Assembly: GCA_036381175.1 (NCBI GenBank)
Contig: DASVDI010000015.1
Location: forward strand, 14,980-78,979
Length of the DNA stretch: 64,000 bases
DNA from: Gammaproteobacteria bacterium
GTDB lineage: Bacteria > Pseudomonadota > Gammaproteobacteria > Natronospirales > JAJUFS01
Direction: 5' to 3'
A program made the position numbers and the translations under genes. Under the pieces are notes generated by a model. It ran no database searches and had not been told where the DNA came from. It saw only the letters and a program-made list of their open reading frames with translations. This document shows positions 176 through 10,878 of the stretch, piece after piece. Every line of letters starts with the position of its first letter. Position 1 is the first letter of the stretch.

Positions 176-1033
176 TTACGAAGCGTCGAATCGCAACGCT
201 TCGGCATGATGCCGCAAGTGATCCCCGATGAAACTCGCGATGAAGTAATAGCTGTGGTCGTAGCCTTCCTGCATGCGCAGCGTCAGCGGATGCCCCGCGG
301 CGTCGCACGCCGCCTGCAGGCGTTCGGGTTTGAGCTGTTCGGTGAGAAAGTTGTCGCTGGTTCCCTGGTCGATAAGCAGCGGCAGGCGTTCATCGGCCGT
401 AGCGATCAGTTCCGAGGCATCCCAGGCTTTCCAGGTGTCGCGATCCGTTCCCAGATAACCCGTGAATGCCTTCTGGCCCCAGGGCGATTCGACGGGATTA
501 ACAATCGGCGCGAACGCGGACACTGATCGATAGCGTCCCGGGTTGCGAAGTGCGGCGACGAGCGCGCCGTGTCCGCCCATGGAATGCCCGCTGATCGCGC
601 GGCGGCCGGAGACGGAAAAATTTGATTCCACGAGTTCGGGCAGTTCGCGTACCACGTAATCATGCATGTGGTAGTTGCGGTCGTACGGTGCGCGCGTGGC
701 ATTGAGATAGAAGCCGGCGCCAAGTCCGAAATCCCAGCCGCCTTCCGGATCGCCGGGTACGTCCGGTCCGCGCGGGCTGGTATCGGGCGCGATGATGGCA
801 ATGCCGAGTTCGGCGGCGATGCCGAGCGCGCCGGCTTTCTGCATGAAGTTTTCGTCCGTGCAGGTGAGGCCCGACAGCCAGTACAGCACCGGTACGCGCG
901 CGCTTGCGGCCTGCGGCGGCAGGTAAATCGCGAACACCATGTCGCAATCAAGACTCGTCGAATGATGGCGGATGCGTTTGTGCCAGCCGCCGAAGCATTT
1001 GTTTTCCGCGACGGTTTCCAAAGTGTTACTCAT
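176..1033 (-). CDS. fghA: S-formylglutathione hydrolase
   Basis: ENKCFGG N-terminus, WLSGLTC, GHSMGG nucleophile elbow, YDHSYYF; ATG at 1033 preceded by GGAG; downstream of class III ADH. Confidence 0.95.
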   Translation of the reverse strand: MSNTLETVAENKCFGGWHKRIRHHSTSLDCDMVFAIYLPPQAASARVPVLYWLSGLTCTDENFMQKAGALGIAAELGIAIIAPDTSPRGPDVPGDPEGGWDFGLGAGFYLNATRAPYDRNYHMHDYVVRELPELVESNFSVSGRRAISGHSMGGHGALVAALRNPGRYRSVSAFAPIVNPVESPWGQKAFTGYLGTDRDTWKAWDASELIATADERLPLLIDQGTSDNFLTEQLKPERLQAACDAAGHPLTLRMQEGYDHSYYFIASFIGDHLRHHAEALRFDAS

Positions 1034-1066
1034 GCGTGAATTCTCCATTGAACATCAACAACACCA

Positions 1067-2284
<1,218 letters not shown>

Positions 2285-2429
2285 TCATGGGCAGGCCTTG
2301 CCCGCGAAAACGATCCGCACCTGCGGTGCCAAGAGCAACCTGAAAAGCTGTCGCAATAATTTTGAAGCACCCTTTTCTACTGATCTCTTTTTTCCCGACG
2401 TGTGACATGAAGAAAGATCAAAGCGGTTC

Positions 2430-2830
2430 CGGCCGCCCCTCCGCTGCGCTCCGGCGCTTGGCCGAATCCCTTTTGTTTCGGCAAAAGGAATCAAAACCAT
2501 CTCGCCCGGTCGGCTGTTATTCATTCAAAGGTGGTCTCAGGCGCTCGCCGTGTACGGGCCACTCGCGAACTCGCCGGTCGTGCCTTCTCTACGCTGCGCT
2601 TCGCTCGGCCCGCCTCGGTCTCGCCACCGCTCGTTGCTACGCGACGGATCCGCGGATTCTCGTTTCGCTACGCTCAACTCCGATTCCGGATCCTGCTTCG
2701 CACCCGTACCCGCCATCGCGCCTTCGGCTGCCTCCGACGGGCGGAAAAGCGAAAAGCAAAAGCGCAGGGCTGCTTGATTCGGGGGTGAAGCAAGCAGTAT
2801 TTCCTTCTTGCGATAGTCGGCGTTTCTTGT
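2430..2830 (-). repeat. Long structured intergenic repeat, left copy (inverted relative to 7820-8215)
   Basis: Aligns by eye to the reverse complement of 7820-8215 (e.g. acgggccactcgcgaactcgccggtc vs acgggtcactcggcaactcgccggtc; ctacgcgacggatccgcggattctc vs ctacgcgacggaaccgcggattctc); ends approximate. Confidence 0.8.
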
Positions 2831-3048
2831 CCGATCCCTCGAATAGATTGCGATTGATTGATGTTTCAAGAGATGTTTAGAGCCTTACGCTTTGAGCGTC
2901 ATGGTTGCGCAAGGCGTAAGACTTGACCCAAAATCTTCTTCGCGTTGTGTCCCCCTCTCGCGGCCCCCGATCCTACTTTCTTACGGCTTTGCTATGTTCA
3001 ATTCAAGGTCATGCACAGCTAAAAAGGGTACTGACCGCTTTTTTCCCC

Positions 3049-3162
3049 ATGGAACTCATTCGCGACACAAACCCAGGAAAGTCCAAGCGGGTGATGGACG
3101 CAATGATGAAGATGGTGAAACTCGACGTCGCGGAATTGGAGAGAGCATACAAAGACGCATAA
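3049..3162 (+). pseudogene. 3' remnant of a VOC/PhnB-like (3-demethylubiquinone-9 3-methyltransferase-like) gene
   Basis: PGKSKRVMDAMMKMVKLDVAELERAY resembles the C-terminal helix of this family; no upstream part of the gene in frame. Confidence 0.55.
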
Positions 3163-3233
3163 GATACGACACGCAAGAAAGCCTTACCAAACGCCGCTGC
3201 GATTTTGGGGCGTGACAGAGCCGGAGAAACACG

Positions 3234-3953
3234 ATGAAAAAGATTCGTACTTTTACAGAACTCCATGATGTTTTCGGAAGCTACCGAAAGGACAACAGAT
3301 GGATGTTTAGAGGAGAAGCGAACTCAAGGTGGAAGACAATTCCAAAAGCTGGTCGCACCCCGTACTCGGCTCGAAATGACCTTGAATATTTAGAGGCGTG
3401 GAAACGAAAGGCTGTTGAGTTCATAGCAAGCGCTCCAAAGGACGATTGGGAGTGGCTGGCGCTCGCTCAACATCATGGACTTCCAACGCGCCTTCTCGAC
3501 TGGACGTACAACCCGCTGGTGGCCGCGTATTTTTCATGCTGTGGAGAACAAGAGCACGACGGCGTGCTGTTTTGCTATAGACCACAATGGACTGCTGTTA
3601 CAGATGCCACATCACCAAAAAACCTAACGAGAGTAGTGAAATTCAAACCACGCGTCGTAGCGCAACGTATTGGCCGTCAAAGCGGCTTATTTACAGTTCA
3701 CCCAGATCCGAAATGCGAATTACAGGACAGTCTTGACGACGAAGACACGCTAGACATTTATTTGTTAGATAAAAAGTATAAAAAGCAGCTTCTATTTGAA
3801 CTGAGCCACTATGGAATCAATGCCGCCACATTAATGGGTGACTTGGACGGGTTATCCGCCCATATGCGCTGGTCGTTGGAGAACCGTAGTTTCTGGGTCA
3901 ACGGCGACGCTCTATCGCTTGACGTTGAAATGGAATCGCCTCCTTTAACATGA
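3234..3953 (+). CDS. FRG domain protein
   Basis: MFRGE motif and [27 protein letters not shown] signature; GGAG RBS; AT-rich composition. Confidence 0.88.
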
Positions 3954-4013
3954 AACAACGCCACCTAGATTGGGCATCGGAATTACCTTCAAGCAAATCA
4001 AAAGGAAAGCCTC

Positions 4014-4775
4014 ATGTCATTTAAGAGTTGGCGAGCCTTCCGAGAATTCGAGCATCACGTGAAAACAGAATTCCGTTTTTCCTTAAATCCAGAGTCTAAA
4101 GAATTCTTAGCGGAACTCGCTCGTACCAGCTCATCTAGAGAAAAACTGATTAAAAAGGGAAGCTTCCTATGGCGAGCACAACTCGGCCATGGCTGGCATA
4201 CGGAAGATCACGGAGAACTGGAGTTAGAAGTTCCAGGCCCATATAGCGCGGAAAGAATGAAGCCGGTGCTGAGAAGAGCTAAAGAAGGCCGGGTAAATCC
4301 AAAAGGAATTCCGTTCTTATACTTGTCGACCGACAGAGATACCGCTATGAGTGAAACCCGACCGTGGATGGGAGAAACTGTCTCGGTTGCTCAGTTCGAA
4401 GTAAATAACGACATCGAGGTAATCGATTTTTCACAGGACGCCGAAATCAAAAGTATCCTCGAATGGTACTTCGAAGAACCCGACGAAGATGTACGAGAGC
4501 AATCTATATGGGCTCAAATTAACCATGCGTTTTCAACCCCAATAACCGTAAGCGATAACAGCGCCGACTACGTCGTTACTCAGCTTATTGCCGAAGTTTT
4601 CAGAGCCAAAGGGTTTAAAGGGATTGCTTATCGATCAAGCTTAGGAGAAGGAACGAACGTGGCCTTGTTCGACCTTTCTTCGGCCGACCCCGTTAACTGT
4701 TTTTTGTATGAGGCTAGAGACATTCGATTCGAATTCAGCGAAGCCGCGAATCCATGGTTTTTGGCGAAGAGTTGA
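4014..4775 (+). CDS. RES domain protein (NAD+ phosphorylase / ART-like family)
   Basis: LWRAQ (R), GRVNPKGIPFLYLS, TAMSETRP (E), GIAYRSS (S). Confidence 0.88.
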   Translation: MSFKSWRAFREFEHHVKTEFRFSLNPESKEFLAELARTSSSREKLIKKGSFLWRAQLGHGWHTEDHGELELEVPGPYSAERMKPVLRRAKEGRVNPKGIPFLYLSTDRDTAMSETRPWMGETVSVAQFEVNNDIEVIDFSQDAEIKSILEWYFEEPDEDVREQSIWAQINHAFSTPITVSDNSADYVVTQLIAEVFRAKGFKGIAYRSSLGEGTNVALFDLSSADPVNCFLYEARDIRFEFSEAANPWFLAKS

Positions 4776-4818
4776 TAACAATCGGCCCGTCCTTACTAAT
4801 CAATTGTATAGCGAAGAT

Positions 4819-6036
4819 TTATTGAGTCGATCGCATTCCAGCCAGCCATTCGAGAAGCCTTTCGAACCATACAACTCGCGTGTATTCCAGATAAAGATTA
4901 AACGCCATAAAAAACACGAATATCACAACGGCCGCGACGATCAAAAGCACAGCCAACTGCACCCGATACTTCGCCGTTAATTGTGAGTACGTGCCGGAAA
5001 CATGCTGTTCATCAAGTTTCTTCAGGTAATTGCACTTCAATTCATCTATATCCTCCTTAAGATGGCGGAGGGTCACATACTGAGCAGTAATCATCGTCAG
5101 CATAATTAAAGCGAATACTGCAGCACCAACCATAATAATATGATTTCTCATTCCACCATCGTCGACGAGCTGGCCAGCAATCAAGATATACGCCAACGGT
5201 ATAGCCAAAAGCTTGGCCGAAACATCGTGAAGCACCGCACCCAATCGTTTCGCTTGCTCTATTTTTTCCCTATCCAGATCTGCAACTAGCGATGAAAATG
5301 AAAAATCCTTCGCGTATAGCTCGTAATCCCTTCGATATCGCGCGTATATTTCATCAAGGCGGCACAGAATCACAGCGAGTCGTTCACTTTCCGGGAATGC
5401 TTCAGCGACTTCGATCACCTTCCCTATAAATATTTCTCGACGACGCTCTGCGTGCGCATCGGAGTCGACTGGAAATAGTTCGGCACAAATTTCATTGACC
5501 CTTTCAAGCTGGGATCTGCTCAACTCACTCCGTGAAATCCTCAGATCAACATCCACTCGGTTTCGGTTTAAAAAACACAACCGAGGACCCAAATCAACTG
5601 TCGAGAGCGTTTCAAGGACACCCACGATCTTCGTCAGTAACAAATACTTCTCGATCAACTCGGAAGAACTCTTCGGATATTCGATATCTTCGTGAACCAG
5701 GTAAAAACTGTCAGGCGCTTTTTTATAAAGATCGGGGCTTCGCAGCAATCCATCAATATCGGAAAAAATATAACCACCATACTGCTGCCCACTCGGAATT
5801 TTGATCTCGTATTCAACAACGTCTCTACACGTTGAGATGCCCTGACTCGAAAGAGCCTTTCCGTTCTCCACTACGTCGATTACGAATTGCGCATTGTATA
5901 GCGCAGCAAGTACACCGCTCGTGGTTTCATCCAACTCAATAGACCCAATCAAGACGCCGTCATTAAGCTGTACGTGCGTCGATTTACGGCACACTTCAAT
6001 AGCGGCGTGAAACAGGTCGGATGCAGCGGCGTTCAT
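4819..6036 (-). CDS. Unknown protein, soluble N-terminal region plus about three C-terminal hydrophobic helices
   Basis: 405 aa ORF; hydrophobic runs LLAIPLAYILIAG, IIMVGAAVFALIMLTMITA, LAVLLIVAAVVIFVFFMAF; ATGA overlap with the upstream gene. Confidence 0.8.
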   Translation of the reverse strand: MNAAASDLFHAAIEVCRKSTHVQLNDGVLIGSIELDETTSGVLAALYNAQFVIDVVENGKALSSQGISTCRDVVEYEIKIPSGQQYGGYIFSDIDGLLRSPDLYKKAPDSFYLVHEDIEYPKSSSELIEKYLLLTKIVGVLETLSTVDLGPRLCFLNRNRVDVDLRISRSELSRSQLERVNEICAELFPVDSDAHAERRREIFIGKVIEVAEAFPESERLAVILCRLDEIYARYRRDYELYAKDFSFSSLVADLDREKIEQAKRLGAVLHDVSAKLLAIPLAYILIAGQLVDDGGMRNHIIMVGAAVFALIMLTMITAQYVTLRHLKEDIDELKCNYLKKLDEQHVSGTYSQLTAKYRVQLAVLLIVAAVVIFVFFMAFNLYLEYTRVVWFERLLEWLAGMRSTQ

Positions 6037-7031
6037 TTTATTGCTTCTATTTCGTTTTTAAGTGTTTCTGGAATATTTCGAATAACAAGACTTCCATCTT
6101 TAAGTGCGACATTGTCACGAACGTACTGCGCGGACATTCGTATCGAAAACTTTCCTTCTTGGAAATTGACTCCAATCAGACGAGAAAGGCTAGCTTTTTC
6201 CACATGAAAGTACGCGTTCATTGCGTACGTCTCTTGCGCGGCGAAATGCTGAAAAATTTCTGGGTCATCTTCGAAGAGTCGCGTCGCGATGGCAGCAACC
6301 GATGCTTCTTTCTTGTTTTTCGCACACTCTAGTAGATATTCTGCGACTGTTTCTCGAGCTTTATGTTTTTGTTCGCCTTTCCAGCCGTTCTCTCGGATGA
6401 AGTCGTTCACGATGTTTATTATTTTTTCAGTCGATTCCTTCGGCTTTGTTAGAGCGGTACAGCCAATAAAGTCCACGAAGTACTCAGACACCTCTCTCTT
6501 ACCGCGTACAAAACTGACGTATTTATGTTCTTCGCCGTCATTCTTGACCTGCAGCCACTTAGTGACATTTATACGAGCAGCGACGTATAGCTTGCTGAGG
6601 TCGAGATGCAGGGTGTCTTTCAGTTTTAGGTCGCTGGTTACCGACGCGCCCACTTTGTCGTTCAGCATTAAGACAAATAGGAAATCTTGATCAGCTTCGC
6701 TGTATCTCAGAAATAGCACGTATCCACCAGCCGATGCCTGCTTCTGACGCATTCTATCTTCCAAGTGCTCCATCGCCTTCGTGGAGAAACCCATAAAATC
6801 TTGCCACTCGGCCTGAACGCACTTTTCGAGAATTTTTTGAAACCAATAGACATCGCTGTTTTCACGAAACAATCCGTAAACAGCAGACCCTCCATAGATT
6901 TTTCGAACCTCACCACCAACTCTCGCCACCGTGTCGTTCAATGGCAAAAGGCCTGGCGCGAGAGTTACCGCTATGTCGGTGCTTGCGGCCTCTTTGGCGA
7001 TTTGGTGGATGACAGCAGCTTTAACTTCCAT
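6033..7031 (-). CDS. Nucleoid-associated protein, NdpA/YejK (NA-37)-like, divergent accessory copy
   Basis: VIHQIAKE N-terminus, ASAGGYVLFLRY, HLDLSKLYVAARINVTKW, YVSFVRGK..VSEYFVDFIGC match the YejK family pattern; 332 aa; GGAG RBS. Confidence 0.82.
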   Translation of the reverse strand: MEVKAAVIHQIAKEAASTDIAVTLAPGLLPLNDTVARVGGEVRKIYGGSAVYGLFRENSDVYWFQKILEKCVQAEWQDFMGFSTKAMEHLEDRMRQKQASAGGYVLFLRYSEADQDFLFVLMLNDKVGASVTSDLKLKDTLHLDLSKLYVAARINVTKWLQVKNDGEEHKYVSFVRGKREVSEYFVDFIGCTALTKPKESTEKIINIVNDFIRENGWKGEQKHKARETVAEYLLECAKNKKEASVAAIATRLFEDDPEIFQHFAAQETYAMNAYFHVEKASLSRLIGVNFQEGKFSIRMSAQYVRDNVALKDGSLVIRNIPETLKNEIEAIK

Positions 7032-7203
7032 TTCCAGAGTCTCCTTCGCGTCGAGGCCACGTTTAGAAATTGTGGCAACTTAACCCATTGTTGAGGTTAT
7101 GTCTTGTCAGCAAATGCTGATTCTGTTCGCAATTTCAGGGCTGTCCGGATAGCGGAAAATCGAGAAAAAGCTAGAGTTATCAGGCCTTTCGAGGCAACGG
7201 GGA

Positions 7204-7322
7204 TTGACGTCTTCGTGGAGCAAACTCCTTGTTAGTTAGCAGTTTGTCGGGCGTGGGCGAATACAAGACCCTTCGGGGGAATCAGCCCGCCGTGCTCCAC
7301 GGGACGTCAAACACCCGACATT
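7204..7322 (+). promoter_or_regulatory. Structured leader / putative cis-regulatory or antisense RNA upstream of a small ORF
   Basis: Interleaved inverted repeats 7204-7222/7293-7310 and 7245-7254/7311-7320; CCC-TTCG-GGG tetraloop at 7269-7278; TTGACG at 7204. Confidence 0.5.
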
Positions 7323-7353
7323 TATCAAAACCGACGTCATTTGGAGAATCAAC

Positions 7354-7692
7354 ATGAACAAGAAGGACACTTCCTACCGCATGCCGGAAGGTTTCAATCC
7401 GTTCTCTGCAATCGATGCAGCGCGAGGGCTCGCTGACGCGATCCACTGGATGCATTTCGACGGGCCAGGCGCTGAAGAAACGATGGAGTTCGGCGACAAG
7501 GTGTCGCTGGATGCGCTGGTGGAGATGCTGAGAACGCGCGTGCATGAGCTGCACGATTACATTCACGAGATCAGCAACAGTACTTCACTGCACCTGCCGA
7601 TGAACGACGCCGATTTCGATGTCTTGCGCTATGGCGCTCCCAACGGCGGGGGGTTCATCCGCGAGGAATCACCGCTCTACGCAGTTCGATAA
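7354..7692 (+). CDS. Small hypothetical protein
   Basis: 112 aa ORF with GGAG RBS and a strong terminator after it; ends in IREESPLY. Confidence 0.7.
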   Translation: MNKKDTSYRMPEGFNPFSAIDAARGLADAIHWMHFDGPGAEETMEFGDKVSLDALVEMLRTRVHELHDYIHEISNSTSLHLPMNDADFDVLRYGAPNGGGFIREESPLYAVR

Positions 7693-7727
7693 TCCGCATC
7701 CACTGCGGATCGCGATCCGCCCTACGC

Positions 7728-7757
7728 AAAGCCCCCGAAGCGGGGCTTTGTTTTTTT
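7728..7757 (+). terminator. Intrinsic terminator
   Basis: aaagcccc-cgaagc-ggggcttt followed by a T-run. Confidence 0.85.
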
Positions 7758-7819
7758 GTGTGCTGGCTTGATGCTCGAAGTCACGGCGCGCGGCATTCGA
7801 AAGCCGAATTCGACCGCGA

Positions 7820-8215
7820 GATGAAGAACTGTGCCGGAGCGACATTGAAATACTGACTGGCGACGATTGACCGCGAAGCAATCAAAGGTCTTCGCTTTTC
7901 GCTCTTGCTTTTGAACCCGTTGAGGCCACCGAGGAAGTGAAGACGAACGCGGGTACGGAGCAGGAACCGGAATCGCAATGAAGCGCAGCGAAATGAGAAT
8001 CCGCGGTTCCGTCGCGTAGTAACGAGGAGTGGCGAGTCCGAGGCGGGCCAAGCGAGTGCAACGAGCGAAGGCTTGACCGGCGAGTTGCCGAGTGACCCGT
8101 GTTCGTCGAACTCCGCAGGCTCCTTTGAATAAACAAGAGGCCGATCGGGAAAGCGTTTTTGGTTACTTGTGTCGCGACAAAAGTGACTCGCCCCCGCGCA
8201 GCGGGCGAAACCCTC
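7820..8215 (+). repeat. Long structured intergenic repeat, right copy
   Basis: Reverse complement aligns to 2430-2830; contains the hairpin at 8162-8187 and gggcgaaaccc; ends approximate. Confidence 0.8.
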
Positions 8216-8520
8216 TTCGAAAAGAAAAAGAAGTTGATGGCCGCGCCATTCTTCGCGGCAGGATGCCGCTCCCACACAGCTTCGATTGACACTCTCGCAA
8301 GAAAAAAGTGACCCGTGTTCGTCGAACTCCGCAGGCTCCTTAAATGAACAAGAGGCCGATCGGGAAAGCGGTTTTCTCCCCTTTTGACAAGACAAAAGGG
8401 GATCGCTCCGCGCAGCGGGCGAAACCCTCTTCGAAAGAAAAGGAAGTTGATGGTCGCGCCAATCTTCGCGGCAGGATGCCGCTCCCACATAACTTCGATT
8501 GACACTCTCGCCAGGAAAAA
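8092..8520 (+). repeat. Tandem direct repeat, two ~216 bp units (8092-8307, 8308-8520), each carrying a REP half-site
   Basis: Both units begin gtgacccgtgttcgtcgaactccgcaggctcctt and contain cttcgcggcaggatgccgctcccaca (8251-8276, 8464-8489). Confidence 0.92.
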
Positions 8521-8546
8521 TATGTTCCGCGTTCGTCTAGCTGCGC

Positions 8547-8773
8547 CGGCCAACTCGCCGGTATTTCGGCCACGAGATCGGCCAATTTGAAAACGAAATG
8601 TCATTTAAGGCCAATTAAAACAGTAATTTACGATTCTGCATCATCGGCCATTGCGCTTTGCTGGCGGCGGGTGCATGCTTGCGCGGATCGGCCAAAAAAT
8701 CGGCCAAATCGACGGTCTATCTTGTCTTAAACTTTTTTAAATCAATAGTTTATATTATCGGGGAATCGGCCAA
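8547..8773 (+). promoter_or_regulatory. Iterated (ATC)GGCCA(A) motifs upstream of the Fic gene
   Basis: Copies at 8547, 8566, 8577, 8608, 8643, 8687, 8699 and 8765, the last overlapping the ATG. Confidence 0.55.
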
Positions 8774-9969
8774 TGAGTCAGCCAGAAATGCCATCCCGTA
8801 TCGAACCCGCTCGCATCGAGCAGATCACCGAGCGGCTGGCGGACGCCATCGCCCGGCTGGTACGGCCCGCTTCGATCCTGGGTAACGCGCTGCATCCGCA
8901 CACGGCGGCGAGTCTCGCTGACGTCGTTCGCGTCATGAACACTTATTACAGCAATCTCATCGAGGGGCATGACACGCGCCCGCGCGACATCGAGCTGGCC
9001 CTGGCAGGGGAGCTGGATAACGAGAATGCGCGTCGCCGGAACCTGCAACTGGAAGCCGCTGCGCACGTACGGGTACAGCGCCTGATCGATGAACAGGCGA
9101 TGGCGGGTACCTTGCCGGAACCGGCGTCGTGCGAATTTCTGCGCTGGGTCCACCACGAGTTTTATCGTGATGCCCCCGAGGAATTGTTGATCGTTCATGG
9201 AGCGGGCCGCGAGTTTCGCATGCAGCCCGGCGAGTGGCGCAGTCGACCGGAACACGATAACGCTGTCGGCCGCCATCAGCCGCCTGCGAGCAAACGTGTT
9301 GACGATTTCATGCGCTATTTCGAGACGCGTTTCGCTTTCTCTGCGATGGGGGAGTCCGCAAGGATTCTTGCGATCGCTATCGCGCATCACCGTTTCAATT
9401 ACATCCATCCCTTTCCGGATGGTAACGGACGTGTAAGCCGCCTGATGAGTCACGCGATGGCGCACAAGGCCGGCGTGGGAGCGCACGGGCTGTGGTCGGT
9501 ATCGCGCGGTCTTGCACGCGGTTTGGCCAGTCGCACCGAGTACAAGGCGAACATGGATCTGGCAGATTCGCCGCGCCATGATGATCTCGACGGGCGAGGA
9601 AATCTTTCTCTCGCTGATCTCAACATGTTCGTGGAATGGTTTCTCGACGTGTGTATCGACCAGGTTACGTTCATGGCGGAGATGTTCGATCTCGACGGGC
9701 TCCGGAATCGTTTTGAAAGACTTGTTCATGCGCTGGACTTCAAGCCGGAGTCGAAATACCTGCTCGAAGCGGCGCTTCTGCAGGGTGAGTTCGAGCGCGG
9801 TGAAGCATCCCGATTGACGGGTCTGCCGGAGCGTTCAGCACGTCGCGTGTTGAAGGATCTTGTTGATCGCGGCTTGCTGGGGTCGGATGGCGAAAAGCGA
9901 CCAGTTTCATTGAGGTTTCCGGCCGACTCCCTGGATTTGCTGTTTCCGAGACTCTATCCGTCGACCTGA
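8773..9969 (+). CDS. Fic family protein with C-terminal helix-turn-helix
   Basis: Canonical HPFPDGNGRVSR motif; SNLIEG intramolecular inhibitory motif; C-terminal ASRLTGLPERSARRVLKDL HTH-like segment. Confidence 0.93.
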   Translation: MSQPEMPSRIEPARIEQITERLADAIARLVRPASILGNALHPHTAASLADVVRVMNTYYSNLIEGHDTRPRDIELALAGELDNENARRRNLQLEAAAHVRVQRLIDEQAMAGTLPEPASCEFLRWVHHEFYRDAPEELLIVHGAGREFRMQPGEWRSRPEHDNAVGRHQPPASKRVDDFMRYFETRFAFSAMGESARILAIAIAHHRFNYIHPFPDGNGRVSRLMSHAMAHKAGVGAHGLWSVSRGLARGLASRTEYKANMDLADSPRHDDLDGRGNLSLADLNMFVEWFLDVCIDQVTFMAEMFDLDGLRNRFERLVHALDFKPESKYLLEAALLQGEFERGEASRLTGLPERSARRVLKDLVDRGLLGSDGEKRPVSLRFPADSLDLLFPRLYPST

Positions 9970-10801: not shown

Positions 10802-10878
10802 GGCTACGTAGCTCAGCTGGTTAGAGCGCGGCACTCATAATGCTGAGGTCGGTGGTTCGAGTCCACCCGTAGCCACCA
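10802..10878 (+). tRNA. tRNA-Met(CAT), elongator type
   Basis: GGCTACG/CGTAGCC acceptor stem, CTCATAA anticodon loop, GTTCGA T-loop, encoded CCA. Confidence 0.95.

Follow-up and report, generated by a model that had tools for sequence, protein, structure and literature searches.

Why should a low-GC island be enclosed by two long, mutually inverted repeats? The island lies in a window of 64,000 nucleotides (the whole stretch of DNA analysed; contig DASVDI010000015.1, here C15, of assembly GCA_036381175.1) from a gammaproteobacterium of the order Natronospirales, whose genome (G000) amounts to 2.8 Mb at 59.6% GC in 58 contigs and is an estimated ~94% complete. Both repeats are copies of a border element of ~335 nt, non-coding and confined to one genus, and represent a real and new family of structured border elements, for which a mechanism can be inferred. 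The best explanation of the whole, with a probability of roughly 40%, appears to be that a pair of such elements together with a small gene makes up a resident platform for the loading and exchange of foreign genes, and that it acts as folded single-stranded DNA (ssDNA). Positions given below without a contig or locus name are those of the window.

An initial annotation of the window had described the repeats as an inverted pair of ~400 bp. The pair is real, and its limits can now be refined to a left copy at 2424-2802 (-) and a right copy at 7848-8211 (+), which are 76% identical and non-coding; a repeat search pairs the inverted arms 2601-2734 and 7922-8055, 134 nt long and 80% complementary, along with additional arms, and a BLAST search with the right copy returns the left one at E = 5e-49. 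On its own strand, from 5′ to 3′, each element consists of a variable module, a (GCTTTT)n tract, a domain of ~250 nt, a CTTTTG...CAAAAG hairpin, a GC-rich hairpin tipped with GCGCAGC, and GAAAC. The left core, ~340 nt at 2424-2763 (-), is delimited by nhmmer and covariance model (CM) matches (CM 135 bits) and runs from (GCTTTT)n to ...GGCGGCCGGAACCG. The right core at 7894-8211 (+) scores 163.6 bits with the CM and is further defined by the consensus structure and its covariation, with a (GCTTTT)-like tract, a Y-shaped long helix bearing two branch hairpins, the 3′ hairpins and GAAAC. The variable modules, placed from alignments, face the cargo in both copies, the left one (2764-2802, -) with the AAATACTG motif and a terminator-like hairpin CTGCTTG...CAAGCAG, the right one (7848-7893, +) likewise with AAATACTG and a hairpin; in the family as a whole the module takes two forms, either AAATACTGCTTGC with a hairpin or the canonical terminator GAAGGCCGCGCAAGCGGCCTTC. 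Two features had been singled out in the right copy, and of these the (GCTTTT)n tract is indeed conserved, at the 5′ boundary of the core, whereas the gggcGAAAccc loop is not; conserved instead is the GC-rich hairpin with the GCGCAGC tip followed by GAAAC.

The source genome holds 13 near-full copies and eight fragments by nhmmer, run with a profile built from the first copies, and 16 matches with the covariance model of 165 positions; core length ranges from 318 to 340 nt and identity among copies from 65 to 96%, with a mean of 70%. The left copy of the window and C54:11117-11484, which lie at unrelated loci, share 95% identity along a stretch of exactly 340 nt, which begins at the GCTTTT tract and ends at ...GGCCG(G/A)AAC, and the sequence beyond both edges is unrelated. 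These sharp edges identify the core as the unit that gets copied, in keeping with the earlier suggestion that the repeat itself may be mobile.

The outward-reading strand of the element folds into a conserved Y-shape, composed of a long helix, two branch hairpins and two 3′ hairpins, which is kept by compensatory changes. The evidence is an alignment of 29 copies, 13 from the source genome, eight from two sister species and eight from metagenome contigs, in which the RNAalifold consensus comprises 13 helices, a branch point and 56 pairs; a double (compensatory) change occurs at least once in 37 of these pairs. Standard pairs fill 94.3% of 1601 cells against 82.1 ± 0.5% when the 3′ partners are shuffled, double-change cells number 202 against 57 ± 7, and the 37 pairs changed on both sides compare with 22.4 ± 2.3; none of 500 shuffles attains the observed value on any of the three counts, and sliding the 3′ partners by 1-3 columns brings pairing down to 29-43%. 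A long-range helix (columns 188-200 and 409-421) has double changes in 10 of its 13 pairs, with up to five pair types. The covarying hairpin from which the initial annotation started (column pairs 502-506/554-558) shows GC/CG/AU/UA and UA/CG/GC types across the 29 copies, so that its covariation is confirmed, and structure extends well beyond it to the element as a whole. The proposal of a single strand polarity, with both copies reading outward, is borne out in the same way: the consensus energy is -58.6 kcal/mol forward and -25.3 kcal/mol for the reverse complement, and 104 G-U cells against 14 A-C cells identify the outward-reading strand as the folding strand at both copies. Finally, the bulged bases in the most conserved helix are invariant, which suggests that a protein may recognise the folded form.

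No coding signal is present in the 29 copies, where 61 of the 81 distinct indel events have lengths not divisible by three and stops occur in all forward frames. A protein-coding element can be ruled out on these frame-breaking indels and forward stops, the reverse frames being open in some copies only, and the long antisense open reading frames (ORFs) over the element are shadows of its GC-rich sequence. Together, the covariation, the strand-specific fold and the missing coding signal support the earlier view of a non-coding element under selection for folding.

A partial tandem re-duplication follows the right copy at 8307-8426 (+), recognised as direct repeats with a period of 213-216 and as an nhmmer match, and covers the 3′ third of the element (model positions ~230-351) and a 92-nt flank. 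All three hairpins on which the initial annotation had relied are present; the one at 8377-8402, however, belongs to this re-duplicated 3′ third (period ~214) and not to a third full copy. In the window the 214-nt tandem duplication extends over 8091-8555 (+), the 92-nt flank containing a REP-like hairpin GCGGCAGGATGCCGC, with two copies and a degenerate third at 8521-8555. Re-duplication of the 3′ third, beginning at model position ~217-236, recurs independently at C46:20964 and at the related loci L098 (in the sister species G001, with two extra copies), L120 and L103.

Next, the position of the copies with respect to low-GC DNA is far from arbitrary. In a layout mapped from all copies with crude gene calls, the order minus-strand element, low-GC genes, plus-strand element is found at C15 17424/22827 (the window), C54 6522/11117, C40 16540/22175, C46 14518/20479 and C8 29018/32000, the right copy of the last being just a 5′ fragment of ~94-128 nt near a contig end that may be an assembly artefact. 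The island of 10 kb on C58 has an element at one end only, and the copies on C1, C51 and C32 are truncated by contig ends. The innermost pair is always inverted and faces outward, and the same layout is seen in the sister species G001 and G002 and in a farmland metagenome contig with a complete unit of 6.4 kb. Mean GC over 2 kb is 0.503 on the inner (5′) side and 0.580 on the outer side, the inner side being lower in 12 of 13 copies, and the elements bound seven of the 17 genomic low-GC segments of at least 2 kb, at the GC step itself. The 3′-side neighbour gene is co-oriented in just 7 of 13 copies, which argues that the element is not a leader. The notion that the repeat marks the cargo thus holds at many loci in three species, and the checks proposed with the initial annotation have yielded no family match in Rfam, strong covariation and copies tied to island borders, with nothing that contradicts it.

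Beyond the innermost pair, outer copies in the same orientation stack on C46, with the array E(-) [MNT/HEPN] e(-) [Fic] E(-) [RM] E(+) e(+), and on C15, with E(-) [.. esterase, frmA] E(-) [window island] E(+) e(+) [Fic], where E and e stand for element copies. Two tRNA genes, at 10802-10875 (+) and at C15:9231-9302, enclose the whole stacked array on C15, the one ~2.6 kb beyond the right element and the other ~4.3 kb further left than the outermost left copy.

The distribution of the element is narrow. A CM search of 66 genomes of the order found it in the source genus only, with 16 matches in G000, six in G001, four in G002 and none in G003, and BLAST over 60 relatives likewise placed it in the source genus alone. 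One exception outside the genus is a reduced relative of 107 nt (G009:C23:225950-226056, or L141 9950-10056; 43 bits) that is without branch hairpin A; it is a single copy from another family of the order and sits in a high-GC region with no adjoining low-GC island. Pattern scans over 596 Gb of genomes and the JGI metagenome contigs recovered two gammaproteobacterial metagenome-assembled genomes (MAGs), a few soil contigs, chance matches in Streptomyces and one contig of 2.4 kb that had been assigned, probably by mis-binning, to a Devosia MAG from the same sample; plasmid and phage collections gave no match. Searches of Rfam 15 at permissive thresholds returned no match on any copy, with E <= 1 over the first 11 kb of the window and E <= 0.1 over 15 related loci.

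A comparison of the valS-moxR site shows that one chromosomal site is empty or holds the pair around different cargo, depending on the species. In G003 a gap of 335 nt separates the two genes and contains a terminator and a REP but no element, and in G000 and G002 the element pair is present around cargos that are unrelated except for a segment of ~490 nt. This segment is 82.5% identical between the two, lies beside the right-hand element and corresponds to the small-gene module described below. As the elements are host-like in GC and confined to the genus and the cargo is foreign and low-GC, a resident docking site fits better than a travelling one.

The cargo is conflict-related, consisting of foreign, low-GC defence, restriction-modification and toxin genes. 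As the initial annotation had it, the pair in the window encloses FRG, RES and YejK genes, and Pfam FRG, RES and NA37 domains are found between the copies: an FRG-domain protein of the PADLOC candidate defence family PDC-S15 (3234-3953, +; FRG 1.9e-26, PDC-S15 5.6e-69, GC 0.48), a protein with a toxin-type RES domain (4014-4775, +; 1.6e-18) and a YejK/NdpA-type nucleoid-associated protein (6033-7031, -; NA37 1.4e-61), along with a 405-aa protein (4819-6036, -) that has no significant family match in Pfam or PADLOC. Other units carry GmrSD/NsnA, Dcm with Vsr and an MvaI-type restriction enzyme, a SIR2-STAND NTPase, PDC-M49A (944 bits), an AriA/OLD-type ATPase and PDC-S02. On the metagenome contigs there is an RHS toxin cluster, and a reverse transcriptase (RVT_1) with STM3845-family and AAA_15 proteins, a set interpreted as retron-like.

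About half of the units additionally carry a small-gene module beside one element, in the order leader with an sRNA-Xcc1-like motif, ORF of ~110 aa, terminator, spacer of ~100 nt and element. In the window the leader and ORF occupy 7030-7692 (+), with counterparts at L038 7300-7980, L104 6500-7106, L106 5750-6421 and L097 5650-6350. The conserved leader of ~300 nt holds a TCAGC-N4-GCTGA palindrome, and its last ~85 nt are the sRNA-Xcc1-like motif (RF02221), at 7245-7328 (+) in the window with 43.7 bits. Matches to RF02221 are full-length and at the same position in all 11 units, with scores of 59.2, 58.7, 56.7 and 54.8 in the four that reach the gathering threshold of 53 bits and 43.7-52.4 in the seven others, including the window, the ten units apart from the window spanning 46.9-59.2; the match is to the leader beside the element and not to the element. 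The ORF itself (7354-7692, +) lies directly 5′ of the element in the same orientation and encodes a helical protein of 112 aa without a Pfam domain, and is followed by an intrinsic terminator at 7726-7751 (+) found by a terminator scan. Paralogues adjoin elements on C54, C51 and C8, and a search of 5.8 billion protein clusters produced 14 homologues, all metagenomic and none with a Pfam domain, the element being present just downstream on every homologue contig that was fetched. The AlphaFold2 model predicts three helices at low confidence (pLDDT 62). The minimal units L097 and L103, in G001 and G002, have nothing except the module between two elements and look like unloaded platforms. The integrons of Xanthomonas have a symE toxin cassette with sRNA-Xcc1 upstream of it (bioRxiv 10.1101/2025.06.18.660453), and by this analogy the small protein and its sRNA-Xcc1-type leader probably form a toxin-like addiction module, which would keep the platform stable. 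The arrangement suggests in turn that sRNA-Xcc1 is a cis-leader of toxin-like cassette genes and not only a trans-acting small RNA. A paralogue of the small protein at C6:156534-157700 is not followed by a border element; beyond it are GTAG-type REPs and a REP-flanked gene for a RAYT-like Y1 transposase.

How the element might act is indicated by its hairpin tips. These follow the pattern G-Y-G-N-A-R-C, with N free and Y-R covarying, and are triloops, without GNRA or UUCG loops. GCGNAGC occurs 87 times on the folding strand and once on its complement, that is 7.8 per kb against 0.70 per kb genome-wide (11-fold). It is known as a DNA-specific, hyperstable mini-hairpin of which RNA versions are much weaker, and such mini-hairpins are found at the ssDNA priming sites of G4-type phages, at RSF1010 ssiA and in N4 virion-polymerase promoters (PMC13037366). 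A promoter scan found no sigma-70 promoter for the element, and a terminator-like hairpin with a T-tract stands ahead of the core. The tip TGAGCGCAGCGAA also caps the GTAG-type REPs of the genome, which flank a RAYT gene, and a tiny hairpin, CGAAGTCCCGGTACTCCGGGA, has been inserted in the GCGCA|GC tips of both REPs and elements, which together suggest a DNA-level process common to the two. On the grounds of the GCGNAGC strand bias, the terminator-like hairpin in place of a promoter and the tip shared with REPs, action as folded single-stranded DNA is favoured over action as RNA.

The tiny GC hairpin (CGAAG-GTCCCGGTACTCCGGGA-GCG) is inserted exactly in the GCGCA|GC triloop tips of ordinary REPs and border elements, at positions that differ between the element copies, and looks like a nested process of hairpin-in-hairpin insertion. 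Its sites are C40:22283, C46:11011, C46:12800, C4:28093, C56:8065, C34:82009, C38:4570 and C1:13484 in the source genome and G2_63, M120, G1_97L and M119 in relatives.

The proposed mode of action would then be as follows. The pair and the small gene would constitute a resident platform into which foreign genes get loaded and exchanged. If the unit became single-stranded, or were resected as a linear piece, the folded form would come to stand at the 3′ end of either strand, since the elements face outward. The folded 3′ end could be recognised by a host enzyme in trans, such as a RAYT-type HUH enzyme, XerCD or a primase, and the element might cap or prime this end, for example for complementary-strand synthesis across the cargo, or might provide the site of a structure-specific recombinase. 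The small protein with its sRNA-Xcc1-type leader would stabilise the platform as a toxin-like addiction module. The architecture suggests a gene-capture platform without a recombinase of its own. A more specific version, an integrase-less, integron-like gene-capture platform in which the ssDNA-folded pair and the toxin-like small gene allow a host enzyme to load, swap or rescue foreign defence cassettes, appears unlikely in full.

A number of observations weigh against the resident platform. No candidate enzyme travels with the element: the best match to the integron integrase model TIGR02249 in the genome has 88.8 bits against a cut-off of 265, and the matches are XerC/XerD-like; a serine recombinase domain (PF00239) has no match anywhere in the genome; the four tyrosine recombinases, two of them XerC/D-like, are all on contigs without the element; and the same is true of the four RAYT-like Y1_Tnp genes on C30, C47, C6 and C14. 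The outer ends show no exact target-site duplication, only a loose likeness between the 5′ GCTTTT tract and GCTTT(T)GA just past the 3′ end, and neither excision nor circles are in evidence. The two ends of one unit are 65-77% identical, no closer than random copies with their mean of 70%. Units on C46, C40, C58 and C1 have no small-gene module, which is therefore frequent and not obligatory. A co-oriented gene lies upstream in 10 of 13 copies, which also fits a 3′ untranslated region (UTR) or another RNA role, and other bacteria do transcribe REPs that carry these tips. Folding of single sequences is no better than that of dinucleotide shuffles (z = -0.23 for DNA, -0.04 and -0.30 for RNA), so that the case for structure is comparative and not thermodynamic. 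Finally, all sequences come from MAGs or metagenome contigs, the host being uncultured.

The recombinase searches settle several candidates. An integron can be ruled out, there being no IntI in the genome, and a serine-recombinase island likewise, no gene with a resolvase domain being present. A RAYT-linked REPIN is ruled out as well, the RAYT genes being flanked by other REPs, of the GTAGG... type, and not by the border element.

Strand-specific covariation as strong as that described above is also typical of RNA families, and the explanation that best withstands the evidence besides the resident platform, although unlikely, is a multicopy structured non-coding RNA transcribed outward, which could serve as a sponge or scaffold, as an antitoxin-type RNA, or as an exonuclease-blocking 3′ UTR stabilising the last cargo transcript; the border position would then merely follow from the site of expression. 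The co-oriented upstream gene in 10 of 13 copies agrees with this, as do the tight linkage to the sRNA-Xcc1 motif and small ORF, the T-rich GCTTT(T)GA tail after the GC-rich 3′ hairpin and the purine-rich folding strand, with a GC skew of +0.14 to +0.16 and an AT skew of about +0.2 over 7801-8250. Against it, the scan returned no promoter, and the terminator-like hairpin and T-tract, and in the window the strong terminator at 7726-7751, separate the upstream gene from the core; the left copy of the window has no co-oriented gene upstream at all. The tips are GNA triloops, the motif of DNA mini-hairpins, and not RNA-type tetraloops, no Rfam family matches, and the RNA folding z-score is about zero.

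The copying of the core alone, recently and with sharp edges, is what would be expected of a selfish repeat akin to REP/BIME or to miniature inverted-repeat transposable elements, which would spread by itself, have no role for the cargo and gather behind terminators or in AT-rich or recently acquired DNA that tolerates insertions. This explanation is improbable, more so than the RNA. Its points of support include partner ends drawn from unrelated subfamilies, the tip motifs common to the REPs of the genome, with the tiny hairpins entering both, an IS110-family insertion in one copy, and comparable long intergenic families in P. fluorescens (PMC2718517). The 5′ (GCTTTT)n tract moreover resembles the GCTTT(T)GA beyond the 3′ edge, L106 has similar flanking strings at both ends, and such likeness of the edges could mean a target preference for terminator T-tracts. 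Passive accumulation, on the other hand, leaves unexplained the constant outward facing of the pairs, their exact placing at both GC steps, the pair around different cargo at one site in two species, the cargo-free pairs with the small gene alone and the retention of structure at 65-75% sequence identity. Neither terminal inverted repeats (TIRs), a clear target-site duplication nor a parent transposase has been found for the element, the IS110-family insertion being the one candidate parent examined; the (GCTTTT)n...CCCGT at its 5′ end and the ...GGGCGAAAC at its 3′ end do not complement each other.

The idea that the pair represents the long TIRs of a decayed or composite transposon that delivered the island in one piece is very improbable and largely refuted: the inverted orientation around the cargo and the absence of the entire unit from the empty valS-moxR site of G003 would agree with it, but ends that are no nearer to each other than to copies elsewhere, together with the lack of a clear target duplication, make a classical transposon unlikely, the dissimilar ends and the lack of any transposase domain among the cargo proteins examined rule out a composite one, the elements are host-like in GC and genus-restricted whereas the cargo is foreign and low-GC, and transposase binding sites have no need of an intramolecular, covarying structure such as this one.

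The copy mentioned above with the IS110-family insertion is at C1:13375-14899 (L035 4376-5900), where a single-copy insertion sequence of 1.2 kb in the opposite orientation interrupts the element at the junction between the two branch hairpins. It encodes a DEDD-type transposase of 319 aa, and it breaks the element and is not its parent. IS110-family elements are known for targeting repeated palindromes.

Comparison with known systems suggests by analogy that the element acts most like attC or REP/REPIN hairpins and is laid out most like pdif modules, and it fails the defining tests of each of these families. REP, BIME and REPIN repeats have been described together with their RAYT (TnpA-REP) transposases (PMC3116915, PMC3337134), and the element resembles them in being intergenic, GC-rich, lineage-specific, present in tens of copies and folded into hairpins on one strand, in a genome that has RAYT-like genes and GTAG-type REPs with the same hairpin tips (GAGCGNAGCGAA). 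In contrast to a REP, an imperfect palindrome of 20-40 nt, or a REPIN, an inverted doublet of ~100 nt, the element is ten times longer and multi-branched. It has no conserved GTAG foot either, its sole GTAG (alignment columns 309-312) varying as GTAG/GGAG/GAAG/GCAG/GGAA, the RAYT genes are flanked by other REPs, and outward pairing around cargo is not a described property of REPs.

With attC sites the element shares the conservation of structure over sequence, a strand-specific fold and invariant bulged bases, and with integron cassettes, including the clusters of attC sites lacking integrases (CALINs), the delimiting of promoter-poor foreign cassettes, many of them with defence or toxin genes, as well as sRNA-Xcc1. 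It differs in its length of 335 nt against 57-141 nt, in lacking the R″/L″-L′/R′ layout and IntI, and in having innermost borders that are inverted and not direct. In the pdif modules of Acinetobacter plasmids, resistance or toxin-antitoxin genes lie between two inverted, double-stranded Xer sites of 28 bp, and the modules, which encode no recombinase, are presumably moved by the XerCD of the host. The cargo between inverted sites and the lack of an own recombinase are the same here, the host enzyme in trans being a proposal only, whereas the border element is chromosomal, long and folded, with no dif-like sequence seen. Correia elements are ~100-155 bp long and have TIRs and a TA duplication, and in Neisseria the cargo of minimal mobile elements is exchanged by transformation and homologous recombination in the flanking genes. 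Correia elements and NIMEs too are structured intergenic repeats, at places where strains differ in the cargo between fixed flanks; the Correia elements, however, are shorter and carry the TIRs and TA duplication. The F-plasmid Frpo forms a comparable strand-specific, multi-hairpin ssDNA structure. The ssDNA initiation signals and promoters (the G4/St-1/alpha3 origins, RSF1010 ssiA/ssiB and the N4 vRNAP promoters; PMC13037366) are likewise strand-specific and multi-hairpin with GCGNAGC-type mini-hairpins, and the ssi sites of RSF1010 are on opposite strands. Those signals are located on phages and plasmids by replication or leading-region genes, none of which was found here. Finally, a resemblance to long repeats of Pseudomonas had been suggested, and the uncharacterised intergenic families R26 (352 bp) and R200 (320 bp) of P. 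fluorescens, with 20-47 copies (PMC2718517), are indeed similar in length, GC content and copy number. No sequence relation to them was found by BLAST, CM or pattern scans, and neither a covarying fold nor a link to island borders is described for them.

Defence islands turn over fast, and for the exchange of cargo at hotspots without a recombinase the border element offers a concrete, testable candidate for the cis-acting site, since it marks both borders with near-perfect regularity, since the pairs always face outward and stand exactly at the GC step, and since one site is empty in one species and holds different cargo in two. It may also add a new case to the DNA elements that work in a folded, single-stranded form, beside attC, REP and the ends of IS200/IS605, and the sRNA-Xcc1-type leader ahead of a new small protein family supports a cis-leader of toxin-like genes on mobile cassettes.

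The genes outside the window island have affinities of their own. On the left, a zinc alcohol dehydrogenase, frmA-like by Pfam (1067-2194, -), sits between the left element and the same-orientation copy at C15:13652-13938. The esterase and frmA DNA is absent from five relatives, and on this evidence and that of the stacked array the flanks seen in the initial annotation, the frmA-like gene among them, are probably cargo of neighbouring cassettes. The esterase (fghA-like) and the frmA-like dehydrogenase, at 176-2194 (-), make up a formaldehyde-detoxification pair of host-like GC, which despite this GC content seems to be accessory cargo too. On the right, a Fic-domain protein, identified by Pfam, is encoded at 8773-9969 (+), and three loci, on C15, C40 and C46, have Fic paralogues immediately beyond a border element. 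A promoter-like TTGACA-16-TATGTT (10/12) at 8499-8526 (+), within the duplicated flank, points to the Fic gene.

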